Shown here: in pieces, positions 1,104 through 51,323 of the stretch
Layout of the letters: every line of letters starts with the position of its first letter
Numbering within the stretch: the stretch's first letter is position 1
The notes under the pieces: model-generated
What the model saw: only the letters and a program-made list of their open reading frames with translations
Told to the model about the DNA's origin: nothing
The model's database searches: none
Made by a program: the position numbers and the translations under genes
From: Chitinophagales bacterium
Lineage (GTDB): Bacteria > Bacteroidota > Bacteroidia > Chitinophagales > CAIOSU01
Assembly (NCBI GenBank): GCA_018401955.1
Contig: JAGYJT010000006.1
Span: forward strand, 10,351-74,350
Reading direction: 5' to 3'
DNA length: 64,000 nt

Positions 1104-1733
1104 TTAATGGGTAGCCAAGTAAGAAGAAACACCAGCGTGGTCGGCTTTCATGCCTTCTTTGCCTTCTTCCCAGTTAGCGGGGCAAACTTCACCTTTCTCT
1201 TCTACAAACTGTAGGGCTTTCAAGGTACGGATGGCCTCGTCAACGTTACGGCCCAATGGCAAGTCGTTAATGGTTTCGTGACGTACCACACCATTTTTGT
1301 CGATAAGGAACAAGCCACGGTAAGCAACCGGTTCGCCTTCGAAAGTGGTTTGGCCTTCGTCGTTGTAGTCAAACTCACCGGCCAATACACCGTAGTTCAT
1401 GGCAATAGTTTTGCTGAAATCGGCAACCAATGGGTAAGTAACGCCTTCAATACCACCTTTATCTTTCGGGGTATTCAACCAAGCCCAGTGGCTAAAGTGT
1501 GAATCTACAGAACATGCTACTACTTCGGTATCCAATTTTTTGAACTCATCCAATTTGGCTTGGAAAGCGTGCAACTCGGTAGGGCACACAAAAGTGAAAT
1601 CCATAGGGTAGAAAAAGAACACTACGAATTTTTTACCGATGTACTGTTCCAATGAAAAGTTCTCTTCAAACTCACCACCGTCTACAACAGCCGTGGTGCT
1701 AAATTTAGGAGCAGGTTTACCTACTAAAGACAT
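1104..1733 (-). CDS. ahpC: 2-Cys peroxiredoxin (AhpC/TSA)
   Basis: FFYPMDFTFVCPTE peroxidatic motif, GRNVDE, GEVCPANW resolving Cys. Confidence 0.95.
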   Translation of the reverse strand: MSLVGKPAPKFSTTAVVDGGEFEENFSLEQYIGKKFVVFFFYPMDFTFVCPTELHAFQAKLDEFKKLDTEVVACSVDSHFSHWAWLNTPKDKGGIEGVTYPLVADFSKTIAMNYGVLAGEFDYNDEGQTTFEGEPVAYRGLFLIDKNGVVRHETINDLPLGRNVDEAIRTLKALQFVEEKGEVCPANWEEGKEGMKADHAGVSSYLATH

Positions 1734-1815
1734 AATAATCTGGTTTTAGGGTTTAATATTGATTGTTGCAACATCGACAGTAACGCACGGTCAGTGCTTA
1801 TTGTTCCTGTCGTTG

Positions 1816-3091: not shown

Positions 3092-3299
3092 TTGGTTAGC
3101 TGACCAGCCCCCCAATCGTCCTCGTCTTTCTTTTAACGAGGATGAAACGGACACCGCGTCTTCAGCCTGTCCCGCCTTGGGCGGGGACGCCCGTATGTTA
3201 TTTTGAACCTTTCGTTCAATCCATCTACCCATCCAAACCCACCCACCCGCAAAATTTCCATATCTTAGCCACAGCTATTGTTTAACCAAATTATATACC

Positions 3300-14103: not shown

Positions 14104-16893
14104 CTACTTCCTAGCCCCAACTAACTTAAAGTTATCAACGGTAACTTTGGTGTATATCGTTTGGCAGAAAAAACCAAAAGTAGTACCGGCAATGCGCGGT
14201 AGGTTTTGGTTGCTAATGAGTTTGGTGCCGTTTACATATACATTTACGCTACTGCCTTTCTTCTCCACTTTAATGGTATTGCTCTGTCCCGAACGGGTAT
14301 TAATAGCGCTGCTTTTTGAGTACTCTACAATCGTTTTCCAATCGCCGCCGCCATACTTCTTCAGTGCAAGATAGCCACCATCGGTATCAAGCAACACTCG
14401 ATAACTATCGCCGCTACCTTTACCGCCAAAAACCAAACCATGCGGGTCGGTAGTACCGCTAATGCTAAACTCTGCTTCTACGGTATAATCTTCCATAGAG
14501 TTTAGGTCATCAAAGTCTTGAGTGTAGCTAGAGCCAATGTCTTTTGACAGGTAATAAACCAACTTACCATTGGCAATGTAAATTTCACGATTGCTATCAG
14601 AGAACTTCTTTTTATCAGGAAAAAAGTAACTGCTGCTGTAACTACTAAAATTATCGATGTAAGTGACTTTACCTAAACCGTTTTCCTTTAACAACGATTT
14701 GATGCTGGTAGTTTTGGCCAAATCATAGGCATCACGGCCATTAGATGCTGTAATGGTTACGTCGGCCTTATTATCTATTAGGTATTTTACAACATCGTAG
14801 TGGCCATTGCTTGCGGCCTCTAACACTGGTGTTAGTTTGTAGGAGCCTTGCCTAATGTTTTTATTGGCGCCTTTGCCTACCATATACTTAACAACATCTA
14901 GCTTACCCGCGGAAGCCGCAGCGCCTAGCGGGCTCCAGCCATCGTTGCTTTTGGTGCTTGAGTCATACTCTTGGTCGTTTACGGGCACGTTACAGCTTTC
15001 GATAAAATACTTTAATATGTCGAGTTTGCCCATACCTGCAGCCAACACACTAGGACTGCCATAACTAGCAGAGCCAATAACGAGGTTGCCACTCTTATCG
15101 GTGCATTTAGCACCTGCCGATACCAAGTCCTTTACTAATTGTAGGTTGCCATTTTTTACCGCCAAAAACAACACAGGGGTTTTACCATCATGTGCACTAG
15201 GGTCGGCACCTGCTTTTAGGGCCGCGCTTACCTCGGCAGCCGAGCCATTTTTAACACCCGCAATAAGTTGGGCATTTACTGCGGCAAGTTTAATGGCTTT
15301 TTCTTGGCGGCTAGCTTCGTCAAACTTACCTTGTGCTACTTCATCACCAGCTTTAAAGCTGAGCGCGTTTTCATAGGCCATACGGGCATTTTCATAATCT
15401 TTAGCTGCCAAATAGTTATCACCTTTGTCAAGCTCAATAAAATACTTTGCCTCTGCGGCTTTATCGGTAGCTTCCTTATCATCAGGTATAAAGGTAAGGG
15501 CCAGCTCATATTTTGCTATCGCATCTCCATATTTCTTCTCTTCCAGCAGCTTATTACCTTCATCATAAGCAGCAGTATATTTTTCCTTGATTTTTTCCTC
15601 AACTGATTCCAGTCCCGATTTTGCAATGGCATCATCAGGATATATTTCGAGTGCAGCCAAGTAAGCCTCTTTTGCATCAGCATACTTATCGCCTGCCAAT
15701 GCGGTGTTGGCTTTGTTTATTGAGGTATCGTACTGTGCCTTAAGGTTAGCAGCTTTTTGTTGTTGCATAAAAAAGTAACCGCCGGCACCGGCCAGTAGCA
15801 GCACCACTACAACAATAGCTGCAATAAGTGGTGTTTTACTCTTCCTTTTGGTTGCTGTCGGCGAAAAATCGGCCCTAGTAGCATTGGGGTCAATCGGCTT
15901 TGAAGCGGGTGGGGCAGGGGTTGGTTCGGCTACATTTCTCGAGTTGTTAGGCGTATCAATTGCCGAAATAGAGGGGATGCTATCCAACCTTTCGGTTTGT
16001 CGGCCGCTAGAAGCAAAGGCTGGGGCATCGTCTTGGGCAGCACTGTCATCTTTTACAAAACTAATGTCCCACTTACCAGTTGTTAAATAAGCTCTTGCGC
16101 TGCTGGCTAGCTCTGCTGCCGAAGGGCGGTTTTGCATACGCAACGACAAGCAAGCCTGTATTAGTTTTGCCAGCTCGGGGCTAAATTTGTCGCTAATTAA
16201 TGGAGGTTTTGAGCCAGATAGCAACGATACGCCGCCCGAACCCATCCATGGCACATCGCCTTCGCAAAGCTCGTACAACATTACGCCCATTGAAAACACA
16301 TCACCTGCGGTGGTATTTTGCGGGTTTTGGTCAAACCTTTCCGGCGGTGCATAGGCTACGGTTAGGGCCCCGCTCATGGTAGTGGCCTTACGTAAGGTGC
16401 TGCGCATGCGGCTGCTTATGCCAAAATCGGTAAGTAGGTAGTTGTTGTCATTATCAATAAGTATGTTATCGGGCTTAATGTCTTGGTGCACAATATCTTT
16501 GCTGTGCAAATACGATAAGCCGTCGCCCACTTGGGCCAGTATTTGTGCTATTTCTTTCTCGCCAAGCACCTGGTGCTCCATTAGCTTATTGCCTACAGAG
16601 CCTTTGGAGCAGTATGGCATTACCAAAAACGGTGAGCCATCAGCAATGTCAAAATAAGAGGCTTTAAGTAAGTTTGGATGATTTAATGGTTGGGTAAGCG
16701 AATACTCCCTACGAAACTGCTTTAGGCCATATTCATCCAATCCTTTTTCTGGGGCATATATTTTAACAGCTACTACGGTGCCTTCGGTCATTTCATCTTC
16801 AGCCTGCCATACTTCCGAAAATCCGCCGATACCTAGTTTGCGCGTTAATTTATACCTTCCTCCAAAAACATCATCCTTTGCGAAATTACCCAT
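14104..16893 (-). CDS. Hanks-type Ser/Thr kinase with TM helix, TPR, ankyrin repeats and C-terminal ConA/LamG-like domain
   Basis: LGIGGFSEV, VAVK, HQDIKPDN, TDFG, YAPPE; TM LIAAIVVVVLLLAGAGG; TPR-like YxxAL repeats; ankyrin TPVLEAASNGHYDVVKYL. Confidence 0.9.
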   Translation of the reverse strand: MGNFAKDDVFGGRYKLTRKLGIGGFSEVWQAEDEMTEGTVVAVKIYAPEKGLDEYGLKQFRREYSLTQPLNHPNLLKASYFDIADGSPFLVMPYCSKGSVGNKLMEHQVLGEKEIAQILAQVGDGLSYLHSKDIVHQDIKPDNILIDNDNNYLLTDFGISSRMRSTLRKATTMSGALTVAYAPPERFDQNPQNTTAGDVFSMGVMLYELCEGDVPWMGSGGVSLLSGSKPPLISDKFSPELAKLIQACLSLRMQNRPSAAELASSARAYLTTGKWDISFVKDDSAAQDDAPAFASSGRQTERLDSIPSISAIDTPNNSRNVAEPTPAPPASKPIDPNATRADFSPTATKRKSKTPLIAAIVVVVLLLAGAGGYFFMQQQKAANLKAQYDTSINKANTALAGDKYADAKEAYLAALEIYPDDAIAKSGLESVEEKIKEKYTAAYDEGNKLLEEKKYGDAIAKYELALTFIPDDKEATDKAAEAKYFIELDKGDNYLAAKDYENARMAYENALSFKAGDEVAQGKFDEASRQEKAIKLAAVNAQLIAGVKNGSAAEVSAALKAGADPSAHDGKTPVLFLAVKNGNLQLVKDLVSAGAKCTDKSGNLVIGSASYGSPSVLAAGMGKLDILKYFIESCNVPVNDQEYDSSTKSNDGWSPLGAAASAGKLDVVKYMVGKGANKNIRQGSYKLTPVLEAASNGHYDVVKYLIDNKADVTITASNGRDAYDLAKTTSIKSLLKENGLGKVTYIDNFSSYSSSYFFPDKKKFSDSNREIYIANGKLVYYLSKDIGSSYTQDFDDLNSMEDYTVEAEFSISGTTDPHGLVFGGKGSGDSYRVLLDTDGGYLALKKYGGGDWKTIVEYSKSSAINTRSGQSNTIKVEKKGSSVNVYVNGTKLISNQNLPRIAGTTFGFFCQTIYTKVTVDNFKLVGARK

Positions 16894-22782: not shown

Positions 22783-23259
22783 TCAAAACGACTCATCCCC
22801 CGTCTTCACCTTCCGCCCAAACAAACTCCAAAGCACTATGGCTATGATAGCGGCGCTGCCGTAGGTAAAAAAGAAATAACCCAGTATGGTCAGTAAGTTC
22901 TTTTGGACCCAACCGAAGGGTGTACCACTGAATATGGCAGCAAACTCAGCAATCATCCATATCACTCCAATTATTGTTATGGTACTGCTCATGAGCGCCA
23001 CCAGTATGGTATGCGTTCTGTTGTTGGGATGGTCGCTATTGAGCGCCGTATAAATAGCGGTATATATCAAAGTAGGTACAATCAGTATTGCTAGCAAGAA
23101 AAGCTCTGATTGGTATACCTCCTCCAAAACATTATTAAAAATTAAGTATCCTAAAATACACCCAAAACTTATCAATGCACCCAATAGCCCTGCCTTCCAC
23201 CAAGCTATGGGTTTGCGGGTTTTGGGTGGTATGGTCGGGTCTTTTATCTCCCCGCTCAT
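22783..23259 (-). CDS. Hypothetical 4-TM membrane protein (paralog 3 of tandem trio)
   Basis: Four hydrophobic helices; MSGEI start shared with neighbour; ATGA overlap. Confidence 0.75.
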   Translation of the reverse strand: MSGEIKDPTIPPKTRKPIAWWKAGLLGALISFGCILGYLIFNNVLEEVYQSELFLLAILIVPTLIYTAIYTALNSDHPNNRTHTILVALMSSTITIIGVIWMIAEFAAIFSGTPFGWVQKNLLTILGYFFFTYGSAAIIAIVLWSLFGRKVKTGDESF

Positions 23260-23291
23260 GGCTCCACCTGTTTTCTAAAGTAAGGAAGTTT
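23245..23291. repeat. Gene-junction direct repeat, copy 1
   Basis: 44/47 identity to 23718-23764. Confidence 0.9.
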
Positions 23292-23732
23292 ACCAGTAGT
23301 TTTCCAGAATAAAAAGGCCAAAACAGGGACAACGAAATTGAGGTACAGGGGGTCCCTAAACCCCTTCGCAGAGAATGAAACAACAAAATACGGGTCTATG
23401 ATATCGCGTAAAATGCTAGCCATGTACATACAAATTATGGTAACCTGTAGGCTTAAGATACCAGTTGTTATTATTTTAATGAAATGTCGTTTCCTATTCC
23501 CATAGGCGGTAATTAGGTACAAGGCCACCAAAGTTGGAGTCAACCAAATTGCCACTAGTACATACCGAGTGAGAATGTGGTTGGCTATTTGATATGGAAA
23601 AAGGGCCATCCAAAATACCTTCATTACCGCGGAGACAAGTATTACCGAAATTGCTCCAGCCCAAAGCAATGTTTTGAAAACAGTCAATGGTTGTTTTTTT
23701 CCATTAGTGCTATCCAATATCTCCCCGCTCAT
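23256..23732 (-). CDS. Hypothetical 4-TM membrane protein (paralog 2)
   Basis: MSGEILDS start, GKLPYFRKQVEP end. Confidence 0.75.
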   Translation of the reverse strand: MSGEILDSTNGKKQPLTVFKTLLWAGAISVILVSAVMKVFWMALFPYQIANHILTRYVLVAIWLTPTLVALYLITAYGNRKRHFIKIITTGILSLQVTIICMYMASILRDIIDPYFVVSFSAKGFRDPLYLNFVVPVLAFLFWKTTGKLPYFRKQVEP

Positions 23733-23764
23733 AGCTCCATCTGTTTTCTAAAGTATGGAAGTTT
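23718..23764. repeat. Gene-junction direct repeat, copy 2
   Basis: 44/47 identity to 23245-23291, 473 bp apart. Confidence 0.9.
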
Positions 23765-24220
23765 GCCTGGGATGAGCCAAAGGATTAGAGCCATTATAAA
23801 GATAGGAATGTTTAAGCTTGCCCATATTAGTGTATCCTCCCCGCTAAAGAAACTTCTTGTTGAAGCTTTGATCAAGTGAATTGTATAAGAGTATATAACA
23901 ATCAATAATAAGGTTGTTTGATAACTTATTAGTCCAGTAAGTAGTATTCTAAAGTAATGAAACCTTCTATCGCCCCATGCTGCAACTCTATACATTGCAG
24001 CTCCATATGCTAGAAATACAACTAGGATAATTAGCCATATCAAAAAGTTATCTATAATATCTTCTCCAAAGTTTTCGGGTAAATTTGTTCGTAAAATAAA
24101 ATGATTGATGCTTAACACAAAAATGGCTACTGCTATACCAAACAACAGGCCATTCTTCCAAACTGAAGCATATTTGGGTTTAGCGGTAATTAACTGACTA
24201 TCCAATATCCCATCTTCCAT
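23729..24220 (-). CDS. Hypothetical 4-TM membrane protein (paralog 1)
   Basis: MEDGILDS start, GKLPYFRKQMEL end. Confidence 0.75.
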   Translation of the reverse strand: MEDGILDSQLITAKPKYASVWKNGLLFGIAVAIFVLSINHFILRTNLPENFGEDIIDNFLIWLIILVVFLAYGAAMYRVAAWGDRRFHYFRILLTGLISYQTTLLLIVIYSYTIHLIKASTRSFFSGEDTLIWASLNIPIFIMALILWLIPGKLPYFRKQMEL

Positions 24221-24375
24221 TTCCTTCCCTTTTATCGCCTAAAAATACAACCCTTATTTTTAATGAAACATATAACAAGGCCAATAAATCACTATGCCGC
24301 GACATCATGACAAAAGTCACTATGCTATTATTTGTTAAAAAGGAACGGGGCGAAGCCAAACTGAACATTTTGCCG

Positions 24376-24383
24376 TAACTTTG
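24376..24383 (+). promoter_or_regulatory. Bacteroidota -7 box for ccmE operon
   Basis: TAACTTTG 33 nt before ATG. Confidence 0.6.
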
Positions 24384-24416
24384 CGTTGCATTTGGTAGCA
24401 CTAAGAATACCTTGTT

Positions 24417-24824
24417 ATGAAAAAGACCCACATTGTTCTTTTGGTGTTTATCGCCGCTTGCGTAGGGGTCATTATTGCCCGCACAGGCGACTATAGCACC
24501 TACGAGAGTTTTACCACCGCAGCATCCAAGCCTGATAAAGAGTACCACGTAGTGGGCACTTTGGCCCGCGAAATGGATATGTACTACGACCCAGAGGTTG
24601 ACCCCAACTACTTTAGCTTCTATATGGTTGATAGCGACGGTGTGCAAAAGAAGGTTGTTTTCCCGGGTACTAAGCCGCAAGATTTTGAGCGCAGCGAGCA
24701 AGTGGTGCTGATAGGCAAAATGACTGGAGAGGAATTCCGCGCTACCAAGATATTGACCAAATGCCCTAGTAAGTATATTGAAGACGAACTAGAGGAAAAC
24801 GAGTATAACGCCGCAACTACTTAA
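24417..24824 (+). CDS. ccmE: Cytochrome c maturation heme chaperone, CxxxY variant
   Basis: N-terminal TM, PQDF, ILTKCPSKY. Confidence 0.9.
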   Translation: MKKTHIVLLVFIAACVGVIIARTGDYSTYESFTTAASKPDKEYHVVGTLAREMDMYYDPEVDPNYFSFYMVDSDGVQKKVVFPGTKPQDFERSEQVVLIGKMTGEEFRATKILTKCPSKYIEDELEENEYNAATT

Positions 24825-28870: not shown

Positions 28871-29049
28871 ACTAGCATGTCATCCTGAGCGTAGTCGAAG
28901 GGTGCGTGCGTGGGCCGTTGGGTTGAGCGTTACATTCAAATTACCGTTACTCTGTAGCAAAGTGACAGTCTTGCTCCCCTCCTTTGCATGGCGCTGAGCG
29001 ATTGGCCAAGGAGGGGTTGGGGGTGGTCAGCACATAATACCAGTGAAAA

Positions 29050-29913: not shown

Positions 29914-31239
29914 TTATTCCCCCACATCAAAATTCGCCTTCAGCGCCTGCTCAATCCTCCTGCTATTATTCATGTTTTGGTAAAATTCCACCACCATCGG
30001 GCGCACAAAAATGTCGCGAGGCGTAAGCGGACGACGCAGCACCAGCCCTTCCAGCGTAGTGCAGCGGCTCAACGCCACGTATACCTGCCCAGCGGCAAAA
30101 GCCCCATTGCCAAGGTCGATTATCACTTTATGGAACGTAAGGCCTTGGCTTTTGTGTATGGTTATGCCCCACGCCAACTTCACCGGGAACTGCGTAAACG
30201 TGCCCACAATCTGCTCTTTGATGGCGCTCTTTAGGTTGTCGTAGTCGTAGCGGGTGTTGTCCCACGTTACGGTGGTTACCTTGTGCTCTTTGCCCTCAAT
30301 CTCAATCAGCAGTTCTTCGTTGGTTATAGCCAGCACCTTACCTATACTGCCGTTTACCCACTTCTTCTCCAAGTCGTTCTTCACCATCATCACCTGCGAG
30401 CCCACCTTTAGCTTTAGCTCCATTTCGGTAGGCATCAGTTCCGGCGGGAAAATGCCCGTACTCTTCCCCTTTAACGTATGTTCCTCGGTGTGCAAGCTCG
30501 CCAGTTTAAAGTCGTTGGTTTGTTGGGCTGCTTGGCGCGTGGCACATAGCGTTATGTACATCTCATCATTCACGGGCGACCCAATGGCGCGGCGATTCAT
30601 TTGCTCCAGCGCGTCCTCGTCCATCTCGTTATTGCGGATGCGGTTCAGCAGGTTCACAAAGCGCTCGTCTTGCTGGCGGTACACCGTGGTCAGTTCAATG
30701 TTCACGGGGTCTAGCTCTTTGTAGGCCGCACTGCTAAAAAAGAAAGGCGTATCGTAATGCTCGCGAAGCAGCGGCCAGTCGTTTTGGGTTACCACCGGCT
30801 CCAACTGGAACAAATCGCCCACCAGTAGCACCTGCACCCCACCGAAAGGCGCCCTAGGGTTGTCGCGCACCGCGCGCAGGGTGCTATCAATGGCATCCAT
30901 CAAGTCGGCGCGCACCATGCTCACCTCGTCAATTATCAGCAGGTCCATTTTCTGCATAATCTTTGCCTTGTTGCCCCGTATGCGCTTATGGTCTAGGCGG
31001 TTGTCGCCCGGTGGCAAAGGGCCAAATGGCAACTGGAAAAACGAGTGTATCGTTGCCCCCTTTACGTTCAGCGCCGCCACGCCCGTAGGCGCCACCAACA
31101 CCACACGCTTGGCCGTGCTCAGGGCCACATCGCGTATAAAAGTACTCTTACCCGTGCCCGCCTTGCCTGTAAGGAAAAGCGACCCCACCGTTTGGTCAAT
31201 TATCTGCCTGGCCTGCTGCTGTAGCGTATTTTCTTGCAT
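29914..31239 (-). CDS. PIF1/RecD-like SF1B DNA helicase
   Basis: LTGKAGTGKS, APTGVAA, IDEVSM, GDLFQLEPV, YRQ, QFPVKLAWGITIHKSQG, GQVYVALSR. Confidence 0.93.
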   Translation of the reverse strand: MQENTLQQQARQIIDQTVGSLFLTGKAGTGKSTFIRDVALSTAKRVVLVAPTGVAALNVKGATIHSFFQLPFGPLPPGDNRLDHKRIRGNKAKIMQKMDLLIIDEVSMVRADLMDAIDSTLRAVRDNPRAPFGGVQVLLVGDLFQLEPVVTQNDWPLLREHYDTPFFFSSAAYKELDPVNIELTTVYRQQDERFVNLLNRIRNNEMDEDALEQMNRRAIGSPVNDEMYITLCATRQAAQQTNDFKLASLHTEEHTLKGKSTGIFPPELMPTEMELKLKVGSQVMMVKNDLEKKWVNGSIGKVLAITNEELLIEIEGKEHKVTTVTWDNTRYDYDNLKSAIKEQIVGTFTQFPVKLAWGITIHKSQGLTFHKVIIDLGNGAFAAGQVYVALSRCTTLEGLVLRRPLTPRDIFVRPMVVEFYQNMNNSRRIEQALKANFDVGE

Positions 31240-31325
31240 AGTGGTAAAGTTACGGGTTATTGGTTAATCGGTTGATTGGTTACTTGTTGATTGGTTGATT
31301 GGCTTTCCATTGACCCGCGAAGCGA

Positions 31326-31973
31326 GTTTTGTCCTGCAGGAAGTGAGGTTTGGCGGGGGGGGTGAACCTTGATTTGCTTGATTACACGATTAGAAAAGGA
31401 TTTTTTTCGTGTTGCGGGTAATCCTTTTCCAATCTACAAATCCTTTATTAAATCAAGGTTCTTACCATTTGGGTTTTGTCGTCCAGGAATGTATATTTTA
31501 TGCGGGTTGTAGGTCTGGTTACTTGCTTGTCTCGCCTTGGGCGAGGGTGGATTGGTTATTGGTTTATTTGTTTTTTTGCCATGGACTATCGATCATGGAC
31601 CATGGACCCGCGCAGCCCAGTTTTGTCGTCCAGGAATCGTTATTTCATGAGGGTTGTGTTACGTGCTGACCACCCCCAACCCCTCCTTTTCCTATCGCTC
31701 ACATGCCATTCGAAGGAGGGGAGCTGTCAAGTGCTCGACTTAGCTCGGCCTTGTTACTTGGCTTTTTTGCCATGGACCATGGACCATTGACTGCGAAGCA
31801 TAGTTTTGTCGTCCACGAATGTATATTTTATGCGGGTTGTGGGGCTAGTTACTGGTCGAAATACGGTAGCTCCCCTCCTTCGCATGGCCATTTTTGCGCG
31901 CTTGCGAAAGGAGGGGCTGGGGGTGGTTAGCGCAGCCCAGTTTTGTCGTGCAGGAAGTGAGTTGTGGCGCAGG
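31326..31973. repeat. Array of five degenerate direct repeats GTTTTGTCGTCCAGGAA(TGTATATTTTATGCGGGTTGT) with ~100-145 nt spacers
   Basis: Starts at 31326, 31473, 31620, 31803, 31940 (periods 147, 147, 183, 137). Confidence 0.85.
31364..31461. repeat. ~98-bp MITE-like element, copy 1
   Basis: TIR GAACCTTGATTT/AAATCAAGGTTC; internal IR AAAAGGATT/AATCCTTTT. Confidence 0.8.
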
Positions 31974-32248
31974 TTTGCCGCGCCTTGGGTAAGCGTGGTT
32001 ACTGTAAATATAAACCGCTGTAAATGAATGGTTTGTGTGGTTGTTGGTTTTTGTATTGGGCTGGGGGAGAGGGAGTTGTGGGGCCGCTTATGGCGGAAAA
32101 TGCAAGCGGATGCTTGCTGCATGGTACACACATGCAAATGTTTGCGCGAGATAGGGGTGAAGGAGTAGCGAAAAACATGAGTTGAAGAACTTGAGATGTT
32201 ATTGAGGGTTTTAAGAGCCTGTTTTAAATTGGCATTTAGTATTTTTAT

Positions 32249-34975
32249 ATGGTAAAATGTAGATGCTTTATGGTATACCTTCTAATTGATACTTGTATTT
32301 GGAAAAAATTAGTTGATAAGGTTCAATTTAATCAAAAGCTATATACCCTGCAAAGTTGGGTAAACTCACGTCAAGTGAAGCTTCTATGTCCTACGATTTT
32401 AAAGACCGAGTGGAAAAAGCATAGAGATATTGAAATAAGGAACATTAATAAGAGGATTGCTGCAAGACGAAAGCAAATAGAAACTGAACAAAATTATGCT
32501 TCTCACATGGGTGCGTTAAAAGATGACCTTGGTTTTGCTTTATTGAAAGGTCAAATAGATGTGATTGATGAAATGTTTGAAAATAGCATTGAAATCCAAT
32601 GGACTGAGGCCGTGAGTGTACTAGGTTTTAATGCACTTAAAAACAAAAAGGCTCCGTTTTTTGAAAGACAAAATAGTGCAGCTGATGCCGAAATGATTTT
32701 CAGTACTTTATTGTTTTTAAAGCAAGATGGAGTTAATGATTTTTATTTTGTGACAGACAATCACAATGACTTTGCAGATATTAAAGATGGGGTTTATTAT
32801 CTGCACCCTGATATCTCTGGCTTATTTCCGACTATCAATATTATTTATATGGATAGTTATGATAATTTTAATAGTCATCTAATTTGCAATAAAAACTTTA
32901 CTGAGAAGATAATTATTAGGGAGAGCATAGACGAAGTTGATTTTAAGTTAAATATAAATGAACATTTAGGAGTAAAGGGTCAAATAGCTGCCTTGTTAAA
33001 ACATTTTAAGGATGTCAATTTTATTCCGTTACCATATATTATTAATAACTACCCATTTGTTAGTAATGAAGCTGGTTACAGTCATTACAGTGGCTTTACT
33101 TTAAAAACTAGAAATAAAGATTTGTTTGAAGGCATAAACGAATTGATCTCTTCAAAACAAACTAATACAGAATCGTTGAGCATAGTAGAAAGGATAGGAT
33201 CTAATTTGATTTATTTCATAGCCAATGATTCAAATGACACACTTGATTTATGCCCTTCAAATCATAATGAGGACTTTTCTATTAAGGGTAAAATAGAACA
33301 CTTTAAACTATTAGAGGCATATAGGGAGTTGCAAGAATGTAAAGACTTTGACCATCCCGATTGGGAAGCATTGGCATATTGTTTTTTTTATTTTGGTGAA
33401 TTTGATAAAGCAGGAAAGCTCTTCAGTAACTCATTGGCGAATCATAAACCTTCTGAACGAAGCAGCTTTAGCTATTCTATAATAGCGTCTAATTTGTTAT
33501 TGCTTAAAAATGTAAGGGATAGTAAAGTTTCTTTAGAATTGGTTTCCACCTTAGACGATAAATTGAAGTCAATTTACCCGTATACGGATAAGTTATTTAT
33601 GGAATATTTAAAGGGATATGATTACTATCACCATACTTTAAACTCCATGACTGCTGTCTTAAAGAAAATAACTGAGCATTTAGAAAGATATCTTCAGAAT
33701 GGTTGGAGTTACAATAACTCTCTAAGAGAAATCATTTGCTATTTCGCTCAATTGGATTTACTCACAAGTAAGAACAACATAATTTTTCACCATTACTCAG
33801 AAATGACCGCTGCTTCTTCTATACTGTTTGAGGCTCTTTTTATCTGCCATTCTTATGGTACTAAAGGGTTAAGGTTACTTGAAGCTTTTGACGATTATTT
33901 TTTGAATAGAATGGTACATTTGGGAAATCCCAAAGAGCTTTTAAGATTTGCGAAAAAATACGGTTTGAATGAAATTACATACTATAGACAGGATAAAAAT
34001 TATTTTATTCGGGACGTGAATAGTTTTTTTGATGATTTTGAAAAGAACTATATCGATATACATGAGATGTCTAAATCAAACCATGTACTCAACGACGTCC
34101 ACAACAGGATGTTTGACAATATCCTTGTTGTGCTATCACTGTTAGATATTGACCAAGATTTTGTACCTGTTATCACTAAAAAAATGGTTTCTTTTATAAG
34201 GGGAAACTCATTGCTCTATCTTACTTCTTATGATTACTTATCAGAATTTGTCAGTAAAAAGGGCAAGTTTATGAATTCTGAAAACCTTACTTCACTTCTC
34301 GAGTTATACTTTGAGGATAGGAACTTGGGACAATTTACTTATCACTCATTGTTATGCCATATAATTGAACAGTTAAATGTGAAGATTACAATTGATTTGT
34401 TAAATTATTTTAATGTCACCAACGCAATGCAAATTGGTCTAATTAGGAACGAGCGAATTAGACTGTTAATGATAGCAAGTAGGGTTATAAGTGATAAAAC
34501 AATTACCAGTAAACTTAGCGCAACTGTAGAGGAAACAGATGAACTTGAATTAATTTATTGGGCCTTAATGTACGACATACCTGTGTCAAAGACAAAAGAG
34601 GAGCATTATTTTAGGCTGGCATTGGAAAGACAAATTAACAGATATGCCCATTCGGATGATTTCTATGGACGATTAAATTCTTTGGGAAATGAGATGATAA
34701 ATATCGCCTTTATGAAGGGATATGAACTGAATTCTGAGAGATTTCAACCGCTTGCGCAATTATCAGAATATTTTAATTGGCTATTAAATATAGGAACTTA
34801 CGATTATTCTAAGTTTCAATTTGAATGGCTGTTCTATTACTTTAACGTGAATTACAAGAAAGAGTTTAGTAAGCATCCACAATTGAAACTCAAAGTTTTT
34901 GAGATTTTGGCAAATAATAGAAATATAAAAGGTGCTGAAACAGCATTTGGTATGTTTAAGGATATCGAAAATTAA
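32249..34975 (+). CDS. PIN-domain (DUF4935-like) protein with long helical/TPR C-terminal region resembling DSR2; putative anti-phage protein
   Basis: LLIDTCIW, KTEW, AADAEMI, FVTDNHNDF; TPR-like LAYCFFYFGEFDKAGKLF; C-terminal YFNWLL..YDYSKFQFEWL; strongly AT-rich; start may be the Met at 32270. Confidence 0.8.
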   Translation: MVKCRCFMVYLLIDTCIWKKLVDKVQFNQKLYTLQSWVNSRQVKLLCPTILKTEWKKHRDIEIRNINKRIAARRKQIETEQNYASHMGALKDDLGFALLKGQIDVIDEMFENSIEIQWTEAVSVLGFNALKNKKAPFFERQNSAADAEMIFSTLLFLKQDGVNDFYFVTDNHNDFADIKDGVYYLHPDISGLFPTINIIYMDSYDNFNSHLICNKNFTEKIIIRESIDEVDFKLNINEHLGVKGQIAALLKHFKDVNFIPLPYIINNYPFVSNEAGYSHYSGFTLKTRNKDLFEGINELISSKQTNTESLSIVERIGSNLIYFIANDSNDTLDLCPSNHNEDFSIKGKIEHFKLLEAYRELQECKDFDHPDWEALAYCFFYFGEFDKAGKLFSNSLANHKPSERSSFSYSIIASNLLLLKNVRDSKVSLELVSTLDDKLKSIYPYTDKLFMEYLKGYDYYHHTLNSMTAVLKKITEHLERYLQNGWSYNNSLREIICYFAQLDLLTSKNNIIFHHYSEMTAASSILFEALFICHSYGTKGLRLLEAFDDYFLNRMVHLGNPKELLRFAKKYGLNEITYYRQDKNYFIRDVNSFFDDFEKNYIDIHEMSKSNHVLNDVHNRMFDNILVVLSLLDIDQDFVPVITKKMVSFIRGNSLLYLTSYDYLSEFVSKKGKFMNSENLTSLLELYFEDRNLGQFTYHSLLCHIIEQLNVKITIDLLNYFNVTNAMQIGLIRNERIRLLMIASRVISDKTITSKLSATVEETDELELIYWALMYDIPVSKTKEEHYFRLALERQINRYAHSDDFYGRLNSLGNEMINIAFMKGYELNSERFQPLAQLSEYFNWLLNIGTYDYSKFQFEWLFYYFNVNYKKEFSKHPQLKLKVFEILANNRNIKGAETAFGMFKDIEN

Positions 34976-34980
34976 TCTCT

Positions 34981-35078
34981 CTCTCGCGGAAGTTCCTCTT
35001 CCGTGAGAGGGAACTTAGTTCCCACGCATTAAAAGTTCGAACCAAGTTCCAACGGCACGAAAGTAACTTTCACGCTAG
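34981..35078. repeat. Degenerate REP-like hairpins downstream of the PIN gene
   Basis: CTCTCGCGGAAG..CTTCCGTGAGAG; GGGAACT.AGTTCCC; GAAAGTAACTTTC. Confidence 0.55.
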
Positions 35079-36279: not shown

Positions 36280-36495
36280 TTTGGTTGATTGGTTACTGGT
36301 TACTGGTTGATTGGTGTTGTTTCGTCCATGGTCGATTGTCCATGGTCCACGGTGATTTTCTTTGCGTTCGTTGCGATTTTATCGTTGCGCACGTTGCGGT
36401 TAAAGCACATAATATGTATGAATCGCCTCGTCTAAGCCGAGACAAGCTATCGTGTGCAAAGGAATTATGCAAAGGCCGCTACGTGTTGATTAGTT

Positions 36496-39268: not shown

Positions 39269-40429
39269 TCAGTACTTCGCCAAGCTAGTATCCACCTCAT
39301 CGGCGTAGGCCAATATGCCACCTTTGAGGTTGTAAAGGTTATCATAGCCAAACTGGGTTTCCAGTAGGCGAACGGCATTGGCGCTACGGGCACCACTGCG
39401 GCAATGTATAATTACTTGCTTGCCCTTGGCAATACGCTCTGCATTGGCAGGCACCGTAGCTAAAGGAATCAATTCGGCACCCAAGTTGGCAAGGTTAGCA
39501 ATCTCATATTCGTACTCTTCGCGCACGTCAATCAATTGGAAATCGGCACCTTGGTCTTTTAAGGCTTTCAGTTCGGTTACGGTTATCTCTTTCACGGTAT
39601 TGTCTTTTTTAGCCTCGGTAGCGGCTGGTTTTTCAATACCACAAAATTGCTCATAATCAATCAGTTTTTCAATCTTTGGGGTGTTCGGGTCTTTCTTGAA
39701 TTTGAGTGTGCGGCTCTCAAAGCTCAGCGCATCAAACAAATACAACCGGCCCACCAAAGGTTCGCCCACGCCAGTAATTACCTTAATCACCTCACTGGCT
39801 TGCAAGCTGCCGATAATGCCAGGCAACACGCCCAATACGCCACCTTCGGCACAGCTAGGTACAAGGCCCGGTGGCGGCGGGGTAGGGTATAGGTCGCGGT
39901 ACTGCGGACCAAAAGTGCCATCGGCATATTTGTAATTAAACACGGTTACCTGCCCATCGAAACGGAAGATAGAAGCATACACGTTGGTTTTGCCTTGTAT
40001 CACGGCCGCATCGTTTACCAAGTATCGGGTAGGGAAGTTATCCGTACCATCGGCTACTAAATCATAGTCTTTTAACAGCTCCAATGCGTTGCTGCTATGA
40101 AACTGCGTGTTGTAGGTATTGATGGTAATGTATGGATTTAAGGCGCGCAACCTATCGGCGGCGGCTTCCACTTTCGGGCGACCTACATCACCAACACCAA
40201 ACAATACTTGGCGCTGCAAGTTGCTATCGTCAACTTTATCAAAGTCAACTATGCCCAAGGTACCCACACCGGCTGCTGCTAGGTAAAGCAATAGTGGACT
40301 GCCCAAGCCACCGGTACCTATTACCAGCACTTTGGCTTCTTTCAATTTGCGCTGCCCCTCCATACCAAATTCTGGTATAATGATGTGGCGGCTATATCGT
40401 TCTAGTTCTTGTTTACTGAAATTCGACAT
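39269..40429 (-). CDS. moeZ: MoeZ/MoeB-type E1-like adenylyltransferase with C-terminal rhodanese domain
   Basis: RYSRH, GTGGLG, SNLQRQ, DGTDNFPTRY, SCAEGGVLG, rhodanese HCRSGARS. Confidence 0.9.
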   Translation of the reverse strand: MSNFSKQELERYSRHIIIPEFGMEGQRKLKEAKVLVIGTGGLGSPLLLYLAAAGVGTLGIVDFDKVDDSNLQRQVLFGVGDVGRPKVEAAADRLRALNPYITINTYNTQFHSSNALELLKDYDLVADGTDNFPTRYLVNDAAVIQGKTNVYASIFRFDGQVTVFNYKYADGTFGPQYRDLYPTPPPPGLVPSCAEGGVLGVLPGIIGSLQASEVIKVITGVGEPLVGRLYLFDALSFESRTLKFKKDPNTPKIEKLIDYEQFCGIEKPAATEAKKDNTVKEITVTELKALKDQGADFQLIDVREEYEYEIANLANLGAELIPLATVPANAERIAKGKQVIIHCRSGARSANAVRLLETQFGYDNLYNLKGGILAYADEVDTSLAKY

Positions 40430-40508
40430 GCGTCTTAGTTCAAAATTTAAAATTCAAAATTCAAAATTGTTTTTTTACCATGGACCATCGACTATGGACC
40501 ATGGACTA

Positions 40509-40784
40509 TTAGCAGCCTCCCGCAATGGCAGGTACTATGCTTATTACGGTTCCGCTCTCTACTGCGGTAGCATTGTTATCAAGGTCTTTTATATCGTCTT
40601 CGCCTACAAACACCTTGATAAATTGGCGCACCTGTCCGTTATCATCAAATAGATGGCCTTTTACGCCTGGGTACGTGGTTGTCAATTCGTTCAATGCCTC
40701 GCCCACGTTGCCGGAGGTAGCTTGAAAGCTGCTCTGGTTATCGGTAAACTTACGTAGCGGTGTAGGTATGATAATTTTTGCCAT
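40509..40784 (-). CDS. cysO: Ubiquitin-like sulfur carrier (MoaD/ThiS/CysO family) ending AGG-C
   Basis: IPTPLRKFT..., ISIVPAIAGGC*. Confidence 0.85.
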   Translation of the reverse strand: MAKIIIPTPLRKFTDNQSSFQATSGNVGEALNELTTTYPGVKGHLFDDNGQVRQFIKVFVGEDDIKDLDNNATAVESGTVISIVPAIAGGC

Positions 40785-40841
40785 GGGGTTTGTTATTGGT
40801 TATAGGGTTATTTGTTATTGGTTTATTTGTAATTCGTATTC

Positions 40842-40939
40842 GAACCTTGATTTTTTTGATTCCCGTTATTTGAAAAGGATTTTTACATACTATGGTATAA
40901 TCCTTTTCTAATCCATAAATCCTTTCAAAATCATGGTTC
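40842..40939. repeat. ~98-bp MITE-like element, copy 2
   Basis: GAACCTTGATTT...AAAAGGATT...AATCCTTTT...AAATCATGGTTC. Confidence 0.8.
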
Positions 40940-40942
40940 AAA

Positions 40943-41419
40943 CTATTGGTTAAAGTTCGACAGCAACGCATCCACGTCAAAAGGGTTGTTTTGGTTAATT
41001 ACCTTTTCCTCCTCAAAGCGACCTTGATCATTCAGTTTCCAAGAAAGTACCGCCGCCGTTTTTGCTTTTTTTACTGATACAATAATGTACGAGAAGTAAG
41101 GCAATGCTTGGCGCAAATCGTGCTCGCTCGGTATGGCTGCGTGCTCTGGGTGGCTGTGGTACACGCCCAGCAGTGTTAGGCCATTTTCATCAGCATACTG
41201 CTCGGCTTTCATGTAATCAATTGATGAAATTTCAAACCTTCGTTCACGGTTTTCCTCTTTGGTATTTACTACTGGTATTGCTTCAGTAACAATTCGCTTA
41301 TCATCATCACTGCCATAAAAAAAACCGCAGCACTCGTGAGGGTAAGTGCTCTCAGCATCTTTAATAATCACTTTTCGTGCATCCTCAGTAAGTATCAGTT
41401 CACTCATCTTTTGGTCCAT
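40943..41419 (-). CDS. mec: JAMM/M67 metallopeptidase (Mec-like CysO-Cys carboxypeptidase)
   Basis: YPHECCG, GVYHSHP, PSEHD JAMM motif. Confidence 0.9.
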   Translation of the reverse strand: MDQKMSELILTEDARKVIIKDAESTYPHECCGFFYGSDDDKRIVTEAIPVVNTKEENRERRFEISSIDYMKAEQYADENGLTLLGVYHSHPEHAAIPSEHDLRQALPYFSYIIVSVKKAKTAAVLSWKLNDQGRFEEEKVINQNNPFDVDALLSNFNQ

Positions 41420-41430
41420 TGTTTTTGTAA

Positions 41431-41529
41431 GAACCTTGATTTTGCTTGATTCTCTTGATTTGAAAAGGATTTTTTACATACTTCGGTAAAATCCTTTTCT
41501 AATCTGTTAATCCTTTTGAATCATGGTTC
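41431..41529. repeat. ~98-bp MITE-like element, copy 3
   Basis: GAACCTTGATT...AAAAGGATT...AATCCTTTT...AATCATGGTTC. Confidence 0.8.
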
Positions 41530-41537
41530 AGACCTTA

Positions 41538-42461
41538 TTAAATTGACAACTCCGGATAATTGCTGCCGTGGTCAGGGAAAACCGTAACTACTACACCGCT
41601 ATCCAATTCGTTGGCTACCCTTATGGCACCAGCCAAGTTTGCCGCCGATGATGGGCTTAACAGCAATCCATCTTTTTTAGCCACTTCTTTTATCAAGGCA
41701 TAAGCCTCTTCGGTGCTCACCTCTAGGTTTCTGTCAGCTAGCGTGGGGTCATATATCTTCGGCACTTTGGCAGTCTCCAAGTGTTTCCAACCTTCTAGGG
41801 CATGCATGGCAAAATCAGGCTGCAAAGATATTACCTCAATGTTCGAGTCAATTTCTTTCAATCTGCGTGAAGTACCCGTAAAAGTACCTGAGGTGCCCAG
41901 CCCTGCAACAAAGTGCGTTATTTTGCCACGGGTTTGGTCAAATATTTCACGGCCAGTGCCGTAGTAGTGTGCCTTCCAGTTGTGCTCGTTGCTATATTGG
42001 TCGGCATAATAATACTGGTCTGGGTTGTTTTGGTATAGTTCCAATGCATACTCTTGTGCACCATCGGTGCCTTCAAATCGACTGGTTTCAATAATGTTTA
42101 CGCCATGTGCTTTAAGGGCGTTTTTCTTTTGGCTGCTGGCATTAGCTGGCAGAGCTAGGGTAACTGGTATGCCCAACGCCGCTCCAATAGCGCCATAAGC
42201 CACGCCGGTGTTACCACTGCTGGCATCCAATAAATGGATGTGCTCGTCTAGTTTACCTGCTGCTACCGCCTCTTTAATAATATTGTAAGCGGCACGCGCC
42301 TTAACGCTGCTGCCAATTTGGTACCACTCTAGCTTGGCATAAATGGTTACACCAGGTTTGTTAAAAGTTCCGTTCAACGGGAACAGGGGGGTGTTCCCGA
42401 TGAACGGTTCCAATGAAAAAACCCTATTTAGTAAGCTCGATTTCGATTCTTTGATGAGCAT
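41538..42461 (-). CDS. cysM: PLP-dependent cysteine synthase, CysM-like
   Basis: IGNTPL, SVKARAA PLP Lys, SSGNTG, GLGTSGT, FPDHG. Confidence 0.88.
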   Translation of the reverse strand: MLIKESKSSLLNRVFSLEPFIGNTPLFPLNGTFNKPGVTIYAKLEWYQIGSSVKARAAYNIIKEAVAAGKLDEHIHLLDASSGNTGVAYGAIGAALGIPVTLALPANASSQKKNALKAHGVNIIETSRFEGTDGAQEYALELYQNNPDQYYYADQYSNEHNWKAHYYGTGREIFDQTRGKITHFVAGLGTSGTFTGTSRRLKEIDSNIEVISLQPDFAMHALEGWKHLETAKVPKIYDPTLADRNLEVSTEEAYALIKEVAKKDGLLLSPSSAANLAGAIRVANELDSGVVVTVFPDHGSNYPELSI

Positions 42462-51269: not shown

Positions 51270-51323
51270 TGTGTTTGGTTGATTAGTTGATTGGTTAATT
51301 AGTTATTGGTTAATTCGTTAAAA

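Follow-up and report, generated by a model that had tools for sequence, protein, structure and literature searches.

The window analysed here, a stretch of 64,000 nucleotides (nt) from a Chitinophagales bacterium (contig JAGYJT010000006.1), contains an array of five short repeats, referred to below as cores, in the gap between two genes. To the left of the array lies the gene for a PIF1-family helicase (pif1; 29914-31239, minus strand), and to the right lies the gene for a protein of 908 amino acids (aa) (32249-34975, plus strand), in which an N-terminal PIN_12 is the sole recognised domain. Both neighbours had been named in an earlier note made from the sequence, and both were confirmed by a domain search; the open reading frames (ORFs) of the window compared with Pfam were 40 in number, that is, nearly all the non-shadow ORFs of at least 150 aa and two shorter ones. 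The five cores, which have the form GTTTTGTC.T.CA.GAA, are all located on the plus strand and start at positions 31326, 31473, 31620, 31803, and 31940 (span, 31326-31956), with periods of 147, 147, 183, and 137 nt. A pattern search allowing up to three mismatches gave five matches in 64,000 bases, all of them in the array, while the mean over 100 dinucleotide shuffles was 0.16 matches, and 0 of the 100 reached five. In addition, no further copy, degenerate copies included, was detected elsewhere in the 64-kb window by a profile search (E ≤ 10). Copies 2 and 4 were alike at 37 of 38 nt (92% identity over 51 nt), the TGCAGGAAGTGAG variant was common to copies 1 and 5, and the prefix GCGCAGCCCA was common to copies 3 and 5. 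These results confirm the five-unit array, its periods, and all three pairings of its copies as they had been read in the earlier note. As shown by the comparisons described below, the array is a local cluster of a dispersed repeat found in a few uncultured Bacteroidota related to one another.

The arrangement of the array was followed from left to right and compared with that of L028, the orthologous pif1 locus of a related metagenome-assembled genome (MAG), JAIXOI01. The first core is preceded by a heptamer tract of the GGTTGAT/GGTTACT type (31247-31308, plus strand), which on the strand of pif1 reads as an A/C-rich leader of the CCAATCA type directly upstream of the pif1 start codon. Core copy 1 (U1, 31324-31358) carries two mismatches and scored 31.2 bits over profile positions 1-35; its 3' part is shortened by a run of G residues and by an inserted 98-bp element resembling a miniature inverted-repeat transposable element (MITE). 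This insert, found both among the repeat families and as an inverted pair, occupies the first spacer (31364-31461) and has perfect 12-nt terminal inverted repeats; its relatives were located near 40851 and 41441. Core copy 2 (U2, 31471-31511; 33.8 bits) has a locus-specific TGTAT variant. It is followed by a palindrome module, CTCGCCTTGGGCGAG (31531-31545), which also stands after cores in loci L008 and L030 and has weaker relatives in the window at 3171 (two mismatches) and 36427 (three mismatches), and then by a heptamer tract of the CCATGGA type (31580-31608, plus strand), which in the relatives is often located directly 5' of a core. Core copy 3 (U3, 31619-31657; 35.1 bits) is the orthologue of L028 core A. 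Behind it are a hairpin module, GACCACCCCCAACCCCTCC...GGAGGGGAGCT, in the plus orientation (31665-31725), which is also present after a core in L028 and L064, and a second CCATGGA-type tract recovered among the repeat families (31771-31791, plus strand). Core copy 4 (U4, 31802-31840; 32.2 bits), the orthologue of L028 core B, is followed by the same hairpin module in the inverted orientation (31868-31931, minus strand), as seen from the inverted-repeat pairs. The two mutually inverted modules contain CCCCTCCTT...AAGGAGGGG hairpins at 31680 and 31872, and a third hairpin of this type was found at 28976. Core copy 5 (U5, 31939-31976; 35.3 bits) is the terminal unit and the orthologue of L028 core C. 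Its tail (31977-32077, plus strand) ends where the homology to the sister genome stops, L028 1610-2164 aligning with window 31610-32077. The MITE-like element, the palindrome, the CCATGGA heptamers, and the hairpins in both orientations that the earlier note had placed in the spacers were all found again.

Some of these modules recur outside the array. With its terminal inverted repeats (GAACCTTGATTT) and dispersed copies, the insert at 31364-31461 qualifies as a MITE; two more copies of this element of about 98 bp, at approximately 40842-40940 and 41431-41530, flank a JAB-domain gene in a ThiF/JAB/PALP cluster of the sulfur-carrier type (39269-42461). The core itself was rejected as a MITE, as no inverted copy of it was present in any locus. 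The stand-alone CCCCTCCTT...AAGGAGGGG hairpin (28976-29016) lies between two convergent genes, a 181-aa ORF and a DUF6952 gene, and resembles a bidirectional terminator. At 31247-31308, 36280-36320, 40785-40840, and 51275-51323, heptamer tracts rich in A and C on the coding strand (CCAATCA or CCAATAA type) extend as far as the start codons of minus-strand genes. Such leaders look like a habit of the lineage, and the same types of tract return in the spacers of the array.

The distribution of the core was examined by using a degenerate pattern of 19 nt to scan the genomes of 185,579 species representatives, and 2 kb was kept on each side of a match. The scan gave 83 loci, and the number of chance matches expected from our own arithmetic is approximately 35. 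An extended consensus of 40 nt was present in 20 of the 83 loci, all of which belong to four MAGs, JAIXOI01 (8 loci), JAIXUD01 (4), CAMDKI01 (4), and CAIOSU01 (4); two of these MAGs are named Sphingobacteriales bacterium, and the others 'Chitinophaga pinensis' MAG and uncultured bacterium. The remaining 63 loci were single matches in unrelated phyla that shared the searched 19-mer alone, and several of them were orthologous coding sequences. A profile built from 43 aligned copies told the two classes apart cleanly, with scores of 27-48 bits over about 40 positions for the family copies and of 16-25 bits over the first 20-26 positions or so for the chance matches. By the profile search, the family comprises at least 50 copies, distributed over 19 distinct loci and the window. 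The arrays consist of 2-5 copies located 85-214 nt apart, and the copies had a single orientation per locus in 20 of the 20 places. A single copy was found in only two of these places, both of which have orthologues holding more. By orthology, the 20 places represent 12 independent chromosomal sites. The closest relative of the window's genome in the collection is the JAIXOI01 MAG, the pif1 genes being 88% identical in DNA. No match to the core was obtained by exact-string searches of the literature. When a consensus-like copy was used as a blastn query against 50,697 phage and 72,556 plasmid records, only partial matches at the chance level were obtained (best E = 0.8), and a phage or plasmid attachment (att) site was ruled out on these grounds.

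On the 5' side, the arrays are flanked by a housekeeping gene wherever Pfam gives the flanking gene a name. These genes include pif1, a menD-like gene for a thiamine pyrophosphate (TPP) enzyme, smc, an SRAP gene (after gpsA), a gene of the aldehyde-dehydrogenase family, a carboxyltransferase gene, purM, the gene of Lhr, gcvP, and genes for a TonB-dependent receptor and a class I tRNA synthetase; in L062, the flanking gene is an unnamed ORF of 124 aa. The earlier note had suggested that the array might be linked to the PIN or PIF1 protein and had proposed looking for the co-occurrence of the core with their homologues. In the relatives, the core turned out to be a dispersed repeat with no such link: arrays adjoin unrelated housekeeping genes at 11 further independent sites, and in L028 the array is kept, with three cores instead of five, but the PIN gene is absent and a Dazbog-like gene is found instead. 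Because the same element is located at unrelated housekeeping sites, its adjacency to the PIN and PIF1 genes is incidental. Most likely, the array has no dedicated role for the genes next to it, and a tempting but wrong tie of a repeat-structured RNA to a PIN defence protein is thereby removed.

One of the sites has a further regulatory feature in the gap. In L064, a TPP riboswitch (1697-1796, minus strand; 69 bits) lies between the TonB-dependent receptor gene and the first core, and the array, which leads into the Gabija gene gajA, starts approximately 20 nt past the predicted promoter of the receptor gene. This promoter was read by eye with the −33/−7 consensus. With the riboswitch and the predicted promoter both inside the gap, the array appears to begin just outside the receptor transcription unit.

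The internal spacers of the arrays are 43-173 nt long. Their repertoire consists of heptamer tracts, the CGCCTTGGGCG palindrome, the long hairpin GACCACCCCCAACCCCTCC...GGAGGGGAGCT in either orientation, a GACCCTCGTTTGAAACGAGG hairpin, and occasional MITEs. For 21 of the 30 internal spacers, a matching spacer or tail exists at some other, non-orthologous site, and 11 of the 30 matched another spacer in their own array. The number of copies differed between orthologous loci, namely, five in the window and three in L028, three in L024 and two in L044, and one in L036 and two in L078. L061 and L030 have four copies each at different spacings, and the orthologous L008 has three. Variation in unit number among relatives, which the earlier note had proposed as a point to check, was accordingly observed at three orthologous pairs. 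In the window, U3 to U5 correspond to L028 cores A to C, and U1, the MITE, and U2 are extra. U2 and U4 are closer to each other than U4 is to its L028 orthologue, which points to duplication within the array or gene conversion. Furthermore, both ends of the additional unit in L078 lie inside a core, and its spacer is homologous to a unit of the site represented by L026 and L047. A block of three cores and two hairpins at the pif1 site has a colinear counterpart at the L064 site, in another genome, and the similarity of the two blocks was about the same as that of the two orthologous pif1 arrays. The L078 unit and the L064 block indicate that the core is a junction for the gain, loss, and copying of units. 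It is therefore apparent that the repeat family exists, is dispersed, and is independent of PIN and PIF1, that its arrays are dynamic, and that whole units are present at non-orthologous sites with their junctions in the core.

The consensus of the core was GTTTTGTCGTCCAGGAAGTGAG followed by a looser ..TTGRTG.GG.TTG, approximately 40 nt in total. In an alignment of 43 copies, conservation started sharply 2 nt before GTTTTG. Upstream of position −2 the information was close to 0 bits; in most of the first 17 nt it reached 2 bits, and conservation there is near-absolute. The mean identity with the consensus was 93% in the first 22 nt and 70% in the next 18 nt, one copy being mis-registered in this count. 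No conserved fold was obtained on either strand when the 43 copies were examined with RNAalifold (energy, 0.0; mean z, approximately +0.3 and +0.2). The z-scores of the single-unit folds of U1 to U5 were −3.07, −1.10, −1.07, −2.29, and +0.37, respectively; the two low values stem from the MITE (U1, −3.07) and the long hairpin, not from the core. Rfam gave no match for the window at the gathering score and none for 31100-32350 at E ≤ 10. For the 19 family loci, it gave signal recognition particle RNA and the TPP riboswitch only, both outside the cores, and membership of the cores in an Rfam family was rejected, as no covariance model matched them. No tRNA or transfer-messenger RNA gene was found by ARAGORN; thus, the cores are not att repeats at tRNA ends, and the element is not derived from a tRNA. 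A coding role was also rejected. Minus-strand frames gave FL(D/Q/H)DKT-like strings in each core followed by early stops, the substitutions were not codon-like, and the orthologous arrays were gap-rich. The frames opened by an ATG or GTG within the core were 1-123 codons long and showed no conservation.

Taken together, the array is probably a local cluster of a dispersed non-coding repeat, specific to this lineage and about 40 nt long, in an intergenic mosaic element that is remodelled by recombination. The repeat would serve as punctuation, with copies of one orientation separated by spacers from a common repertoire of modules, and the arrays would grow, shrink, and swap units through recombination at the core. 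Such recombination could be of the RecA type, acting on 40 nt of identity, or could be carried out by a putative core-specific recombinase. The 22-nt 5' half may be kept as a site of recombination or protein recognition, or through continual gene conversion. The position of the array beside a foreign PIN gene could be accounted for if arrays of this kind occupy long, recombination-permissive gaps.

On the other hand, several observations weigh against this reading. The 22-nt 5' half was near-invariant across five genomes in arrays that are otherwise only about 69% identical, which argues for something that reads it and for a real sequence-specific function. An ATG or GTG was located approximately 9 nt after an AGGAAG stretch in 38 of the 50 copies, and a translation-start-like function is possible. 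Neither the 64-kb window (Pfam) nor the scanned 2-kb flanks contained a gene for a recombinase, transposase, or integrase. By inspection the core has no dyad symmetry, and its orientation is always direct. Since dRS3, the repeat of the Neisseria intergenic mosaic elements (NIMEs), and the repetitive extragenic palindromic (REP) sequences are inverted-repeat elements and the core is not palindromic, the resemblance to these elements is one of analogy, not of membership. In addition, the copy numbers given above are lower bounds, because the scan required the exact 19-mer and kept 2 kb per side. The window's own genome is not among the scanned species representatives, and its copy count refers to the 64 kb alone.

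DNA of low GC content (32-42%, compared with 49-55% in the flanking native genes) carrying defence-type genes was found 3' of the array at 5 of the 12 sites and 5' of the array at none of the 12 (Fisher p = 0.037). The cargo of L028 (34% GC), at the same site as the PIN_12 gene of the window, includes a DzbA-like (Dazbog) gene (2e-37), and that of L064 includes gajA (GajA, 5e-150). In L019, a gene for a retron-type reverse transcriptase (8.6e-41) stands behind an XRE-like ORF recognised by eye, 1.2 kb downstream of the core. The cargo of L022 matched PDC-S06 (5e-53), and that of L030, which is inserted relative to L061 and L008, encodes a PLD nuclease with weak matches. The cargo was unlike at orthologous sites in the comparisons of the window with L028, of L030 with L061 and L008, and of L022 with L053. 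PADLOC, however, also matches generic domains of housekeeping proteins (kinase, ThiF, SMC, and Lhr), and its defence labels therefore need care. A case in the window is a 929-aa Ser/Thr protein kinase with ankyrin repeats (14104-16893), whose strong PADLOC matches (mad6 and PD-T4-6) are at the domain level and call for caution in taking PADLOC matches as defence.

The foreign DNA of the window is an island of 32.8% GC (32078-35050, with an approximate right edge), compared with 54% for pif1 and hom. It belongs to the context of the array and lies outside the repeat family, its sole gene being that of the 908-aa PIN_12 protein on the plus strand. No direct repeats were found flanking the island. 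The label 'DSR2-like' given to the 908-aa protein in the earlier note was not sustained, as the protein matched no PADLOC family at E ≤ 0.01 and no NCBIfam family. Among 8,000 candidates scored, its own entry aside, it had four distant homologues (24% identity, approximately 900-950 aa), all with PIN_12. It is an orphan and a candidate defence nuclease. A row of four minus-strand ORFs (158-167 aa each) without a Pfam match lies elsewhere in the window (22783-24701), and a 50-nt stretch is repeated there at a spacing of 473 nt over two ORF junctions (92% identity), which suggests tandem paralogues.

Two motifs were considered as marks of the cargo boundaries and rejected. A hairpin motif (AGTTGAAAAACTTGCGC...) was present near the cargo in L025, L028, and L030 and weakly in the window, and it was absent at the other sites. 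Its form is ACAAGTTGA(A/G)AAACTTGCGC(T/C)AGA, with occurrences at L025 2616, L028 2209, L030 119 (minus strand), and window 32180. Their distance beyond the last core is 200-300 nt, except that the motif of L030 stands at the distal end of the insert, and their orientation is always that of the cores. A dispersed GGGAGAGGGAG palindrome family, inside which the break between the window and L028 might have fallen, was discarded, as the motif was found at that site alone.

The cargo raises another explanation, in which a dedicated, putative site-specific recombinase would recognise the core, the arrays would be landing pads where foreign, mostly defence genes are inserted and exchanged, and the units would be scars or empty cassettes left by earlier events, as in an integron- or NIME-like system. 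The uniform direct orientation, the sharp 5' edge, and the addition of a unit exactly at the core are expected of a site-specific system, and the one-sided position of the cargo and its variation between orthologous sites are consistent with it. However, the cargo is not flanked by cores, none being found to the right of the PIN gene at E ≤ 10, and the breaks lie away from the cores; the homology of the window and L028 breaks at 32077, 137 nt past the start of U5, and the L030 PLD insert is approximately 500 nt from the last core. Moreover, no recombinase gene was seen in the flanks examined, 7 of the 12 sites have no foreign cargo within 2 kb, and the sample is small, consists of sites found through the core itself, and depends on the broad matches of PADLOC. 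We consider this explanation unlikely. The proposal of the earlier note that the copies are recombination or insertion sites at a hotspot stands as far as the variation in copy number, the unit added exactly at the core, and the variable low-GC cargo on the 3' side are concerned, but not in that the cores do not flank the cargo.

Because the cargo is unbounded by cores, the L030 insert is distant, no recombinase is visible, and the PADLOC matches are broad, the tie between arrays and cargo is treated as a suggestive association. The simplest account of it is that the repeats and the foreign genes both gather in long, recombination-tolerant gaps. The more specific claim that the core is the target of a putative site-specific recombination system, and that this system builds direct-repeat arrays at the edges of housekeeping genes as landing pads for defence genes gained by horizontal transfer (Gabija, Dazbog, retron, PDC-S06, PLD nuclease, and the orphan PIN_12), appears rather unlikely. 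If it were true, the system would be a chromosomal gene-exchange platform working like NIMEs or integrons, with a different, non-palindromic site. If the tie with defence cargo holds genome-wide, the arrays would mark hotspots of defence genes in a lineage represented by MAGs only and would point to a new recombination site and its enzyme.

Another reading would make the core a DNA site bound by a chromosomal protein (a nucleoid protein, an insulator, or a regulator, for example), in which case the arrays would shield native promoters from neighbouring transcription. Protein recognition would fit a primary sequence that is strongly conserved but does not fold. At 8 of the 12 sites, the 5' gene is divergent and its start codon is 50-262 nt from the first core, and the L064 array starts just past the predicted promoter of the riboswitch-controlled receptor gene, as described above. 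The spacer hairpins resemble bidirectional terminators, like the one standing alone between convergent genes at 28976. At 4 of the 12 sites, however, the array follows the 3' end of a gene (gaps of approximately 5 nt at two sites, and of 92 and 104 nt), the core lacks dyad symmetry, and 40 nt is long for a simple operator. We regard a protein site of this kind as very unlikely. The orientations of the genes on the 3' side were mixed, and a promoter or terminator role deduced from gene orientation was rejected, as the bias of eight divergent starts and four gene ends is too weak.

It is highly improbable that the units are small-RNA (sRNA) genes forming a tandem family, or that the array is a long precursor cut at the cores like a guide array. 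Other bacteria do have sRNA genes in tandem, namely, NsiR1 in Nostoc and LhrC in Listeria, and some repeats of clustered regularly interspaced short palindromic repeats (CRISPR) begin with GTTTT and are unstructured, as the core does and is. The units here are likewise tandem, on the same strand, and about 100-200 nt long, with a conserved 5' block and a variable remainder that often contains a GC hairpin. However, neither a conserved structure on either strand nor an Rfam match was obtained, and no sequence was conserved upstream of the core, as would be expected for a promoter. A scan for sigma-70 promoters gave one site, at the PIN gene alone. The Bacteroidetes promoter pattern TTTG-N17-21-TAnnTTTG matched once in the whole window and not in the array, a count so low that this test is weak and uninformative. 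Two terminator-like sites were found in 31000-32400, compared with 2.3 expected. In addition, the spacers vary irregularly in length and draw on repeat modules of the genome itself, no cas gene was found in the window, no inverted anti-repeat copy is present, and the orientation relative to the neighbouring genes is mixed. The structured non-coding RNA proposed in the earlier note was thus left without support.

An assembly artefact, a possibility that the earlier note had also raised, is hardly conceivable: two contigs of one MAG (L019 1-70 and L056 1-70) do overlap at one and the same core and terminate 50 nt from it, but the five units have different spacers, and the array is colinear with that at the orthologous site of an independently assembled MAG (L028). 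The ends of the L019 and L056 contigs show that the repeat can break short-read assemblies, and in practical terms it is also a ready marker for variable islands.

No description of this repeat family was found by literature strings or in Rfam, and its array architecture, here in Bacteroidota, is best known from Neisseria. Among known systems, tandem sRNA arrays such as NsiR1 and LhrC likewise consist of one-strand units of 100-200 nt in an intergenic gap; judged from the sequence, no conserved promoter, terminator, or fold was apparent for each unit of the present array. CRISPR arrays share direct repeats of about 40 nt starting with GTTTT and non-identical spacers. In contrast, the spacers here are 43-173 nt long, irregular, and derived from the genome's own modules, and 2-5 units are found at 12 independent sites. 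A CRISPR array was rejected on the basis of the irregular periods, the 70% conservation of the 3' 18 nt, the re-use of spacers across sites, and the absence of a Cas family among the 40 window ORFs.

Integrons and clusters of attC sites lacking integron integrases (CALINs) resemble the arrays in that sites in direct orientation bound units of variable content and a unit is inserted at a site that was already present. Integron cassettes are known to carry defence genes. An attC site is an imperfect palindrome that folds when single-stranded, with RYYYAAC and GTTRRRY at its borders. No attC-like fold was obtained for the core, and its GTTTTGT start does not fit GTTRRRY by inspection. Furthermore, the units of 85-214 nt have no conserved ORF, the cargo is not bounded by cores, and no IntI or other integrase was found in the window. 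An integron attC or CALIN array was rejected on the fold, the core-site sequence, the lack of cassette ORFs, and the lack of an integrase in the window.

REP sequences are imperfect palindromes of alternating orientation and are tied to REP-associated tyrosine transposases (RAYTs), which are IS200/IS605-like. In bacterial interspersed mosaic elements (BIMEs), as in the arrays described here, a short repeat and intervening motifs form extragenic clusters, many copies are present per genome, and the clusters are often located at gene ends. The core, on the other hand, has no hairpin and had a single orientation in all 20 places, and no RAYT was seen in the 64-kb window or the 2-kb flanks. Assignment of the core to the REP or BIME class was rejected, since the core neither folds nor alternates in orientation.

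According to the published description of NIMEs (PMC1797815), dRS3 repeats are separated by spacers of the RS families, and the arrays also hold other repeats, for example, MITE-like ones. The same source describes syntenic arrays that vary in unit number and adjoin variable genes, and the role proposed there for NIMEs is that of substrates in homologous recombination, with exogenous DNA, or of sites on which a recombinase acts (PMC1797815). As given in that source, dRS3 is 20 bp long and has the terminal inverted repeats ATTCCC...GGGAAT (PMC1797815). The present core differs in being about 40 nt long, twice the length of dRS3, in having neither inverted termini nor dyad symmetry, and in its constantly direct orientation. 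It also belongs to another phylum and has no sequence similarity to dRS3, the variable neighbours are defence-type genes here and surface antigens in Neisseria, and no integrating phage or recombinase is known for the present arrays. The likeness is one of architecture, not of sequence: in both cases a short repeat punctuates arrays of spacer-repeat families, and syntenic arrays vary in number, as seen here from the 21 of 30 spacers common across sites, the unequal orthologous arrays, and the variable adjoining cargo. By this analogy, the NIME is the closest counterpart of the array, and the BIMEs of E. coli resemble it more loosely.

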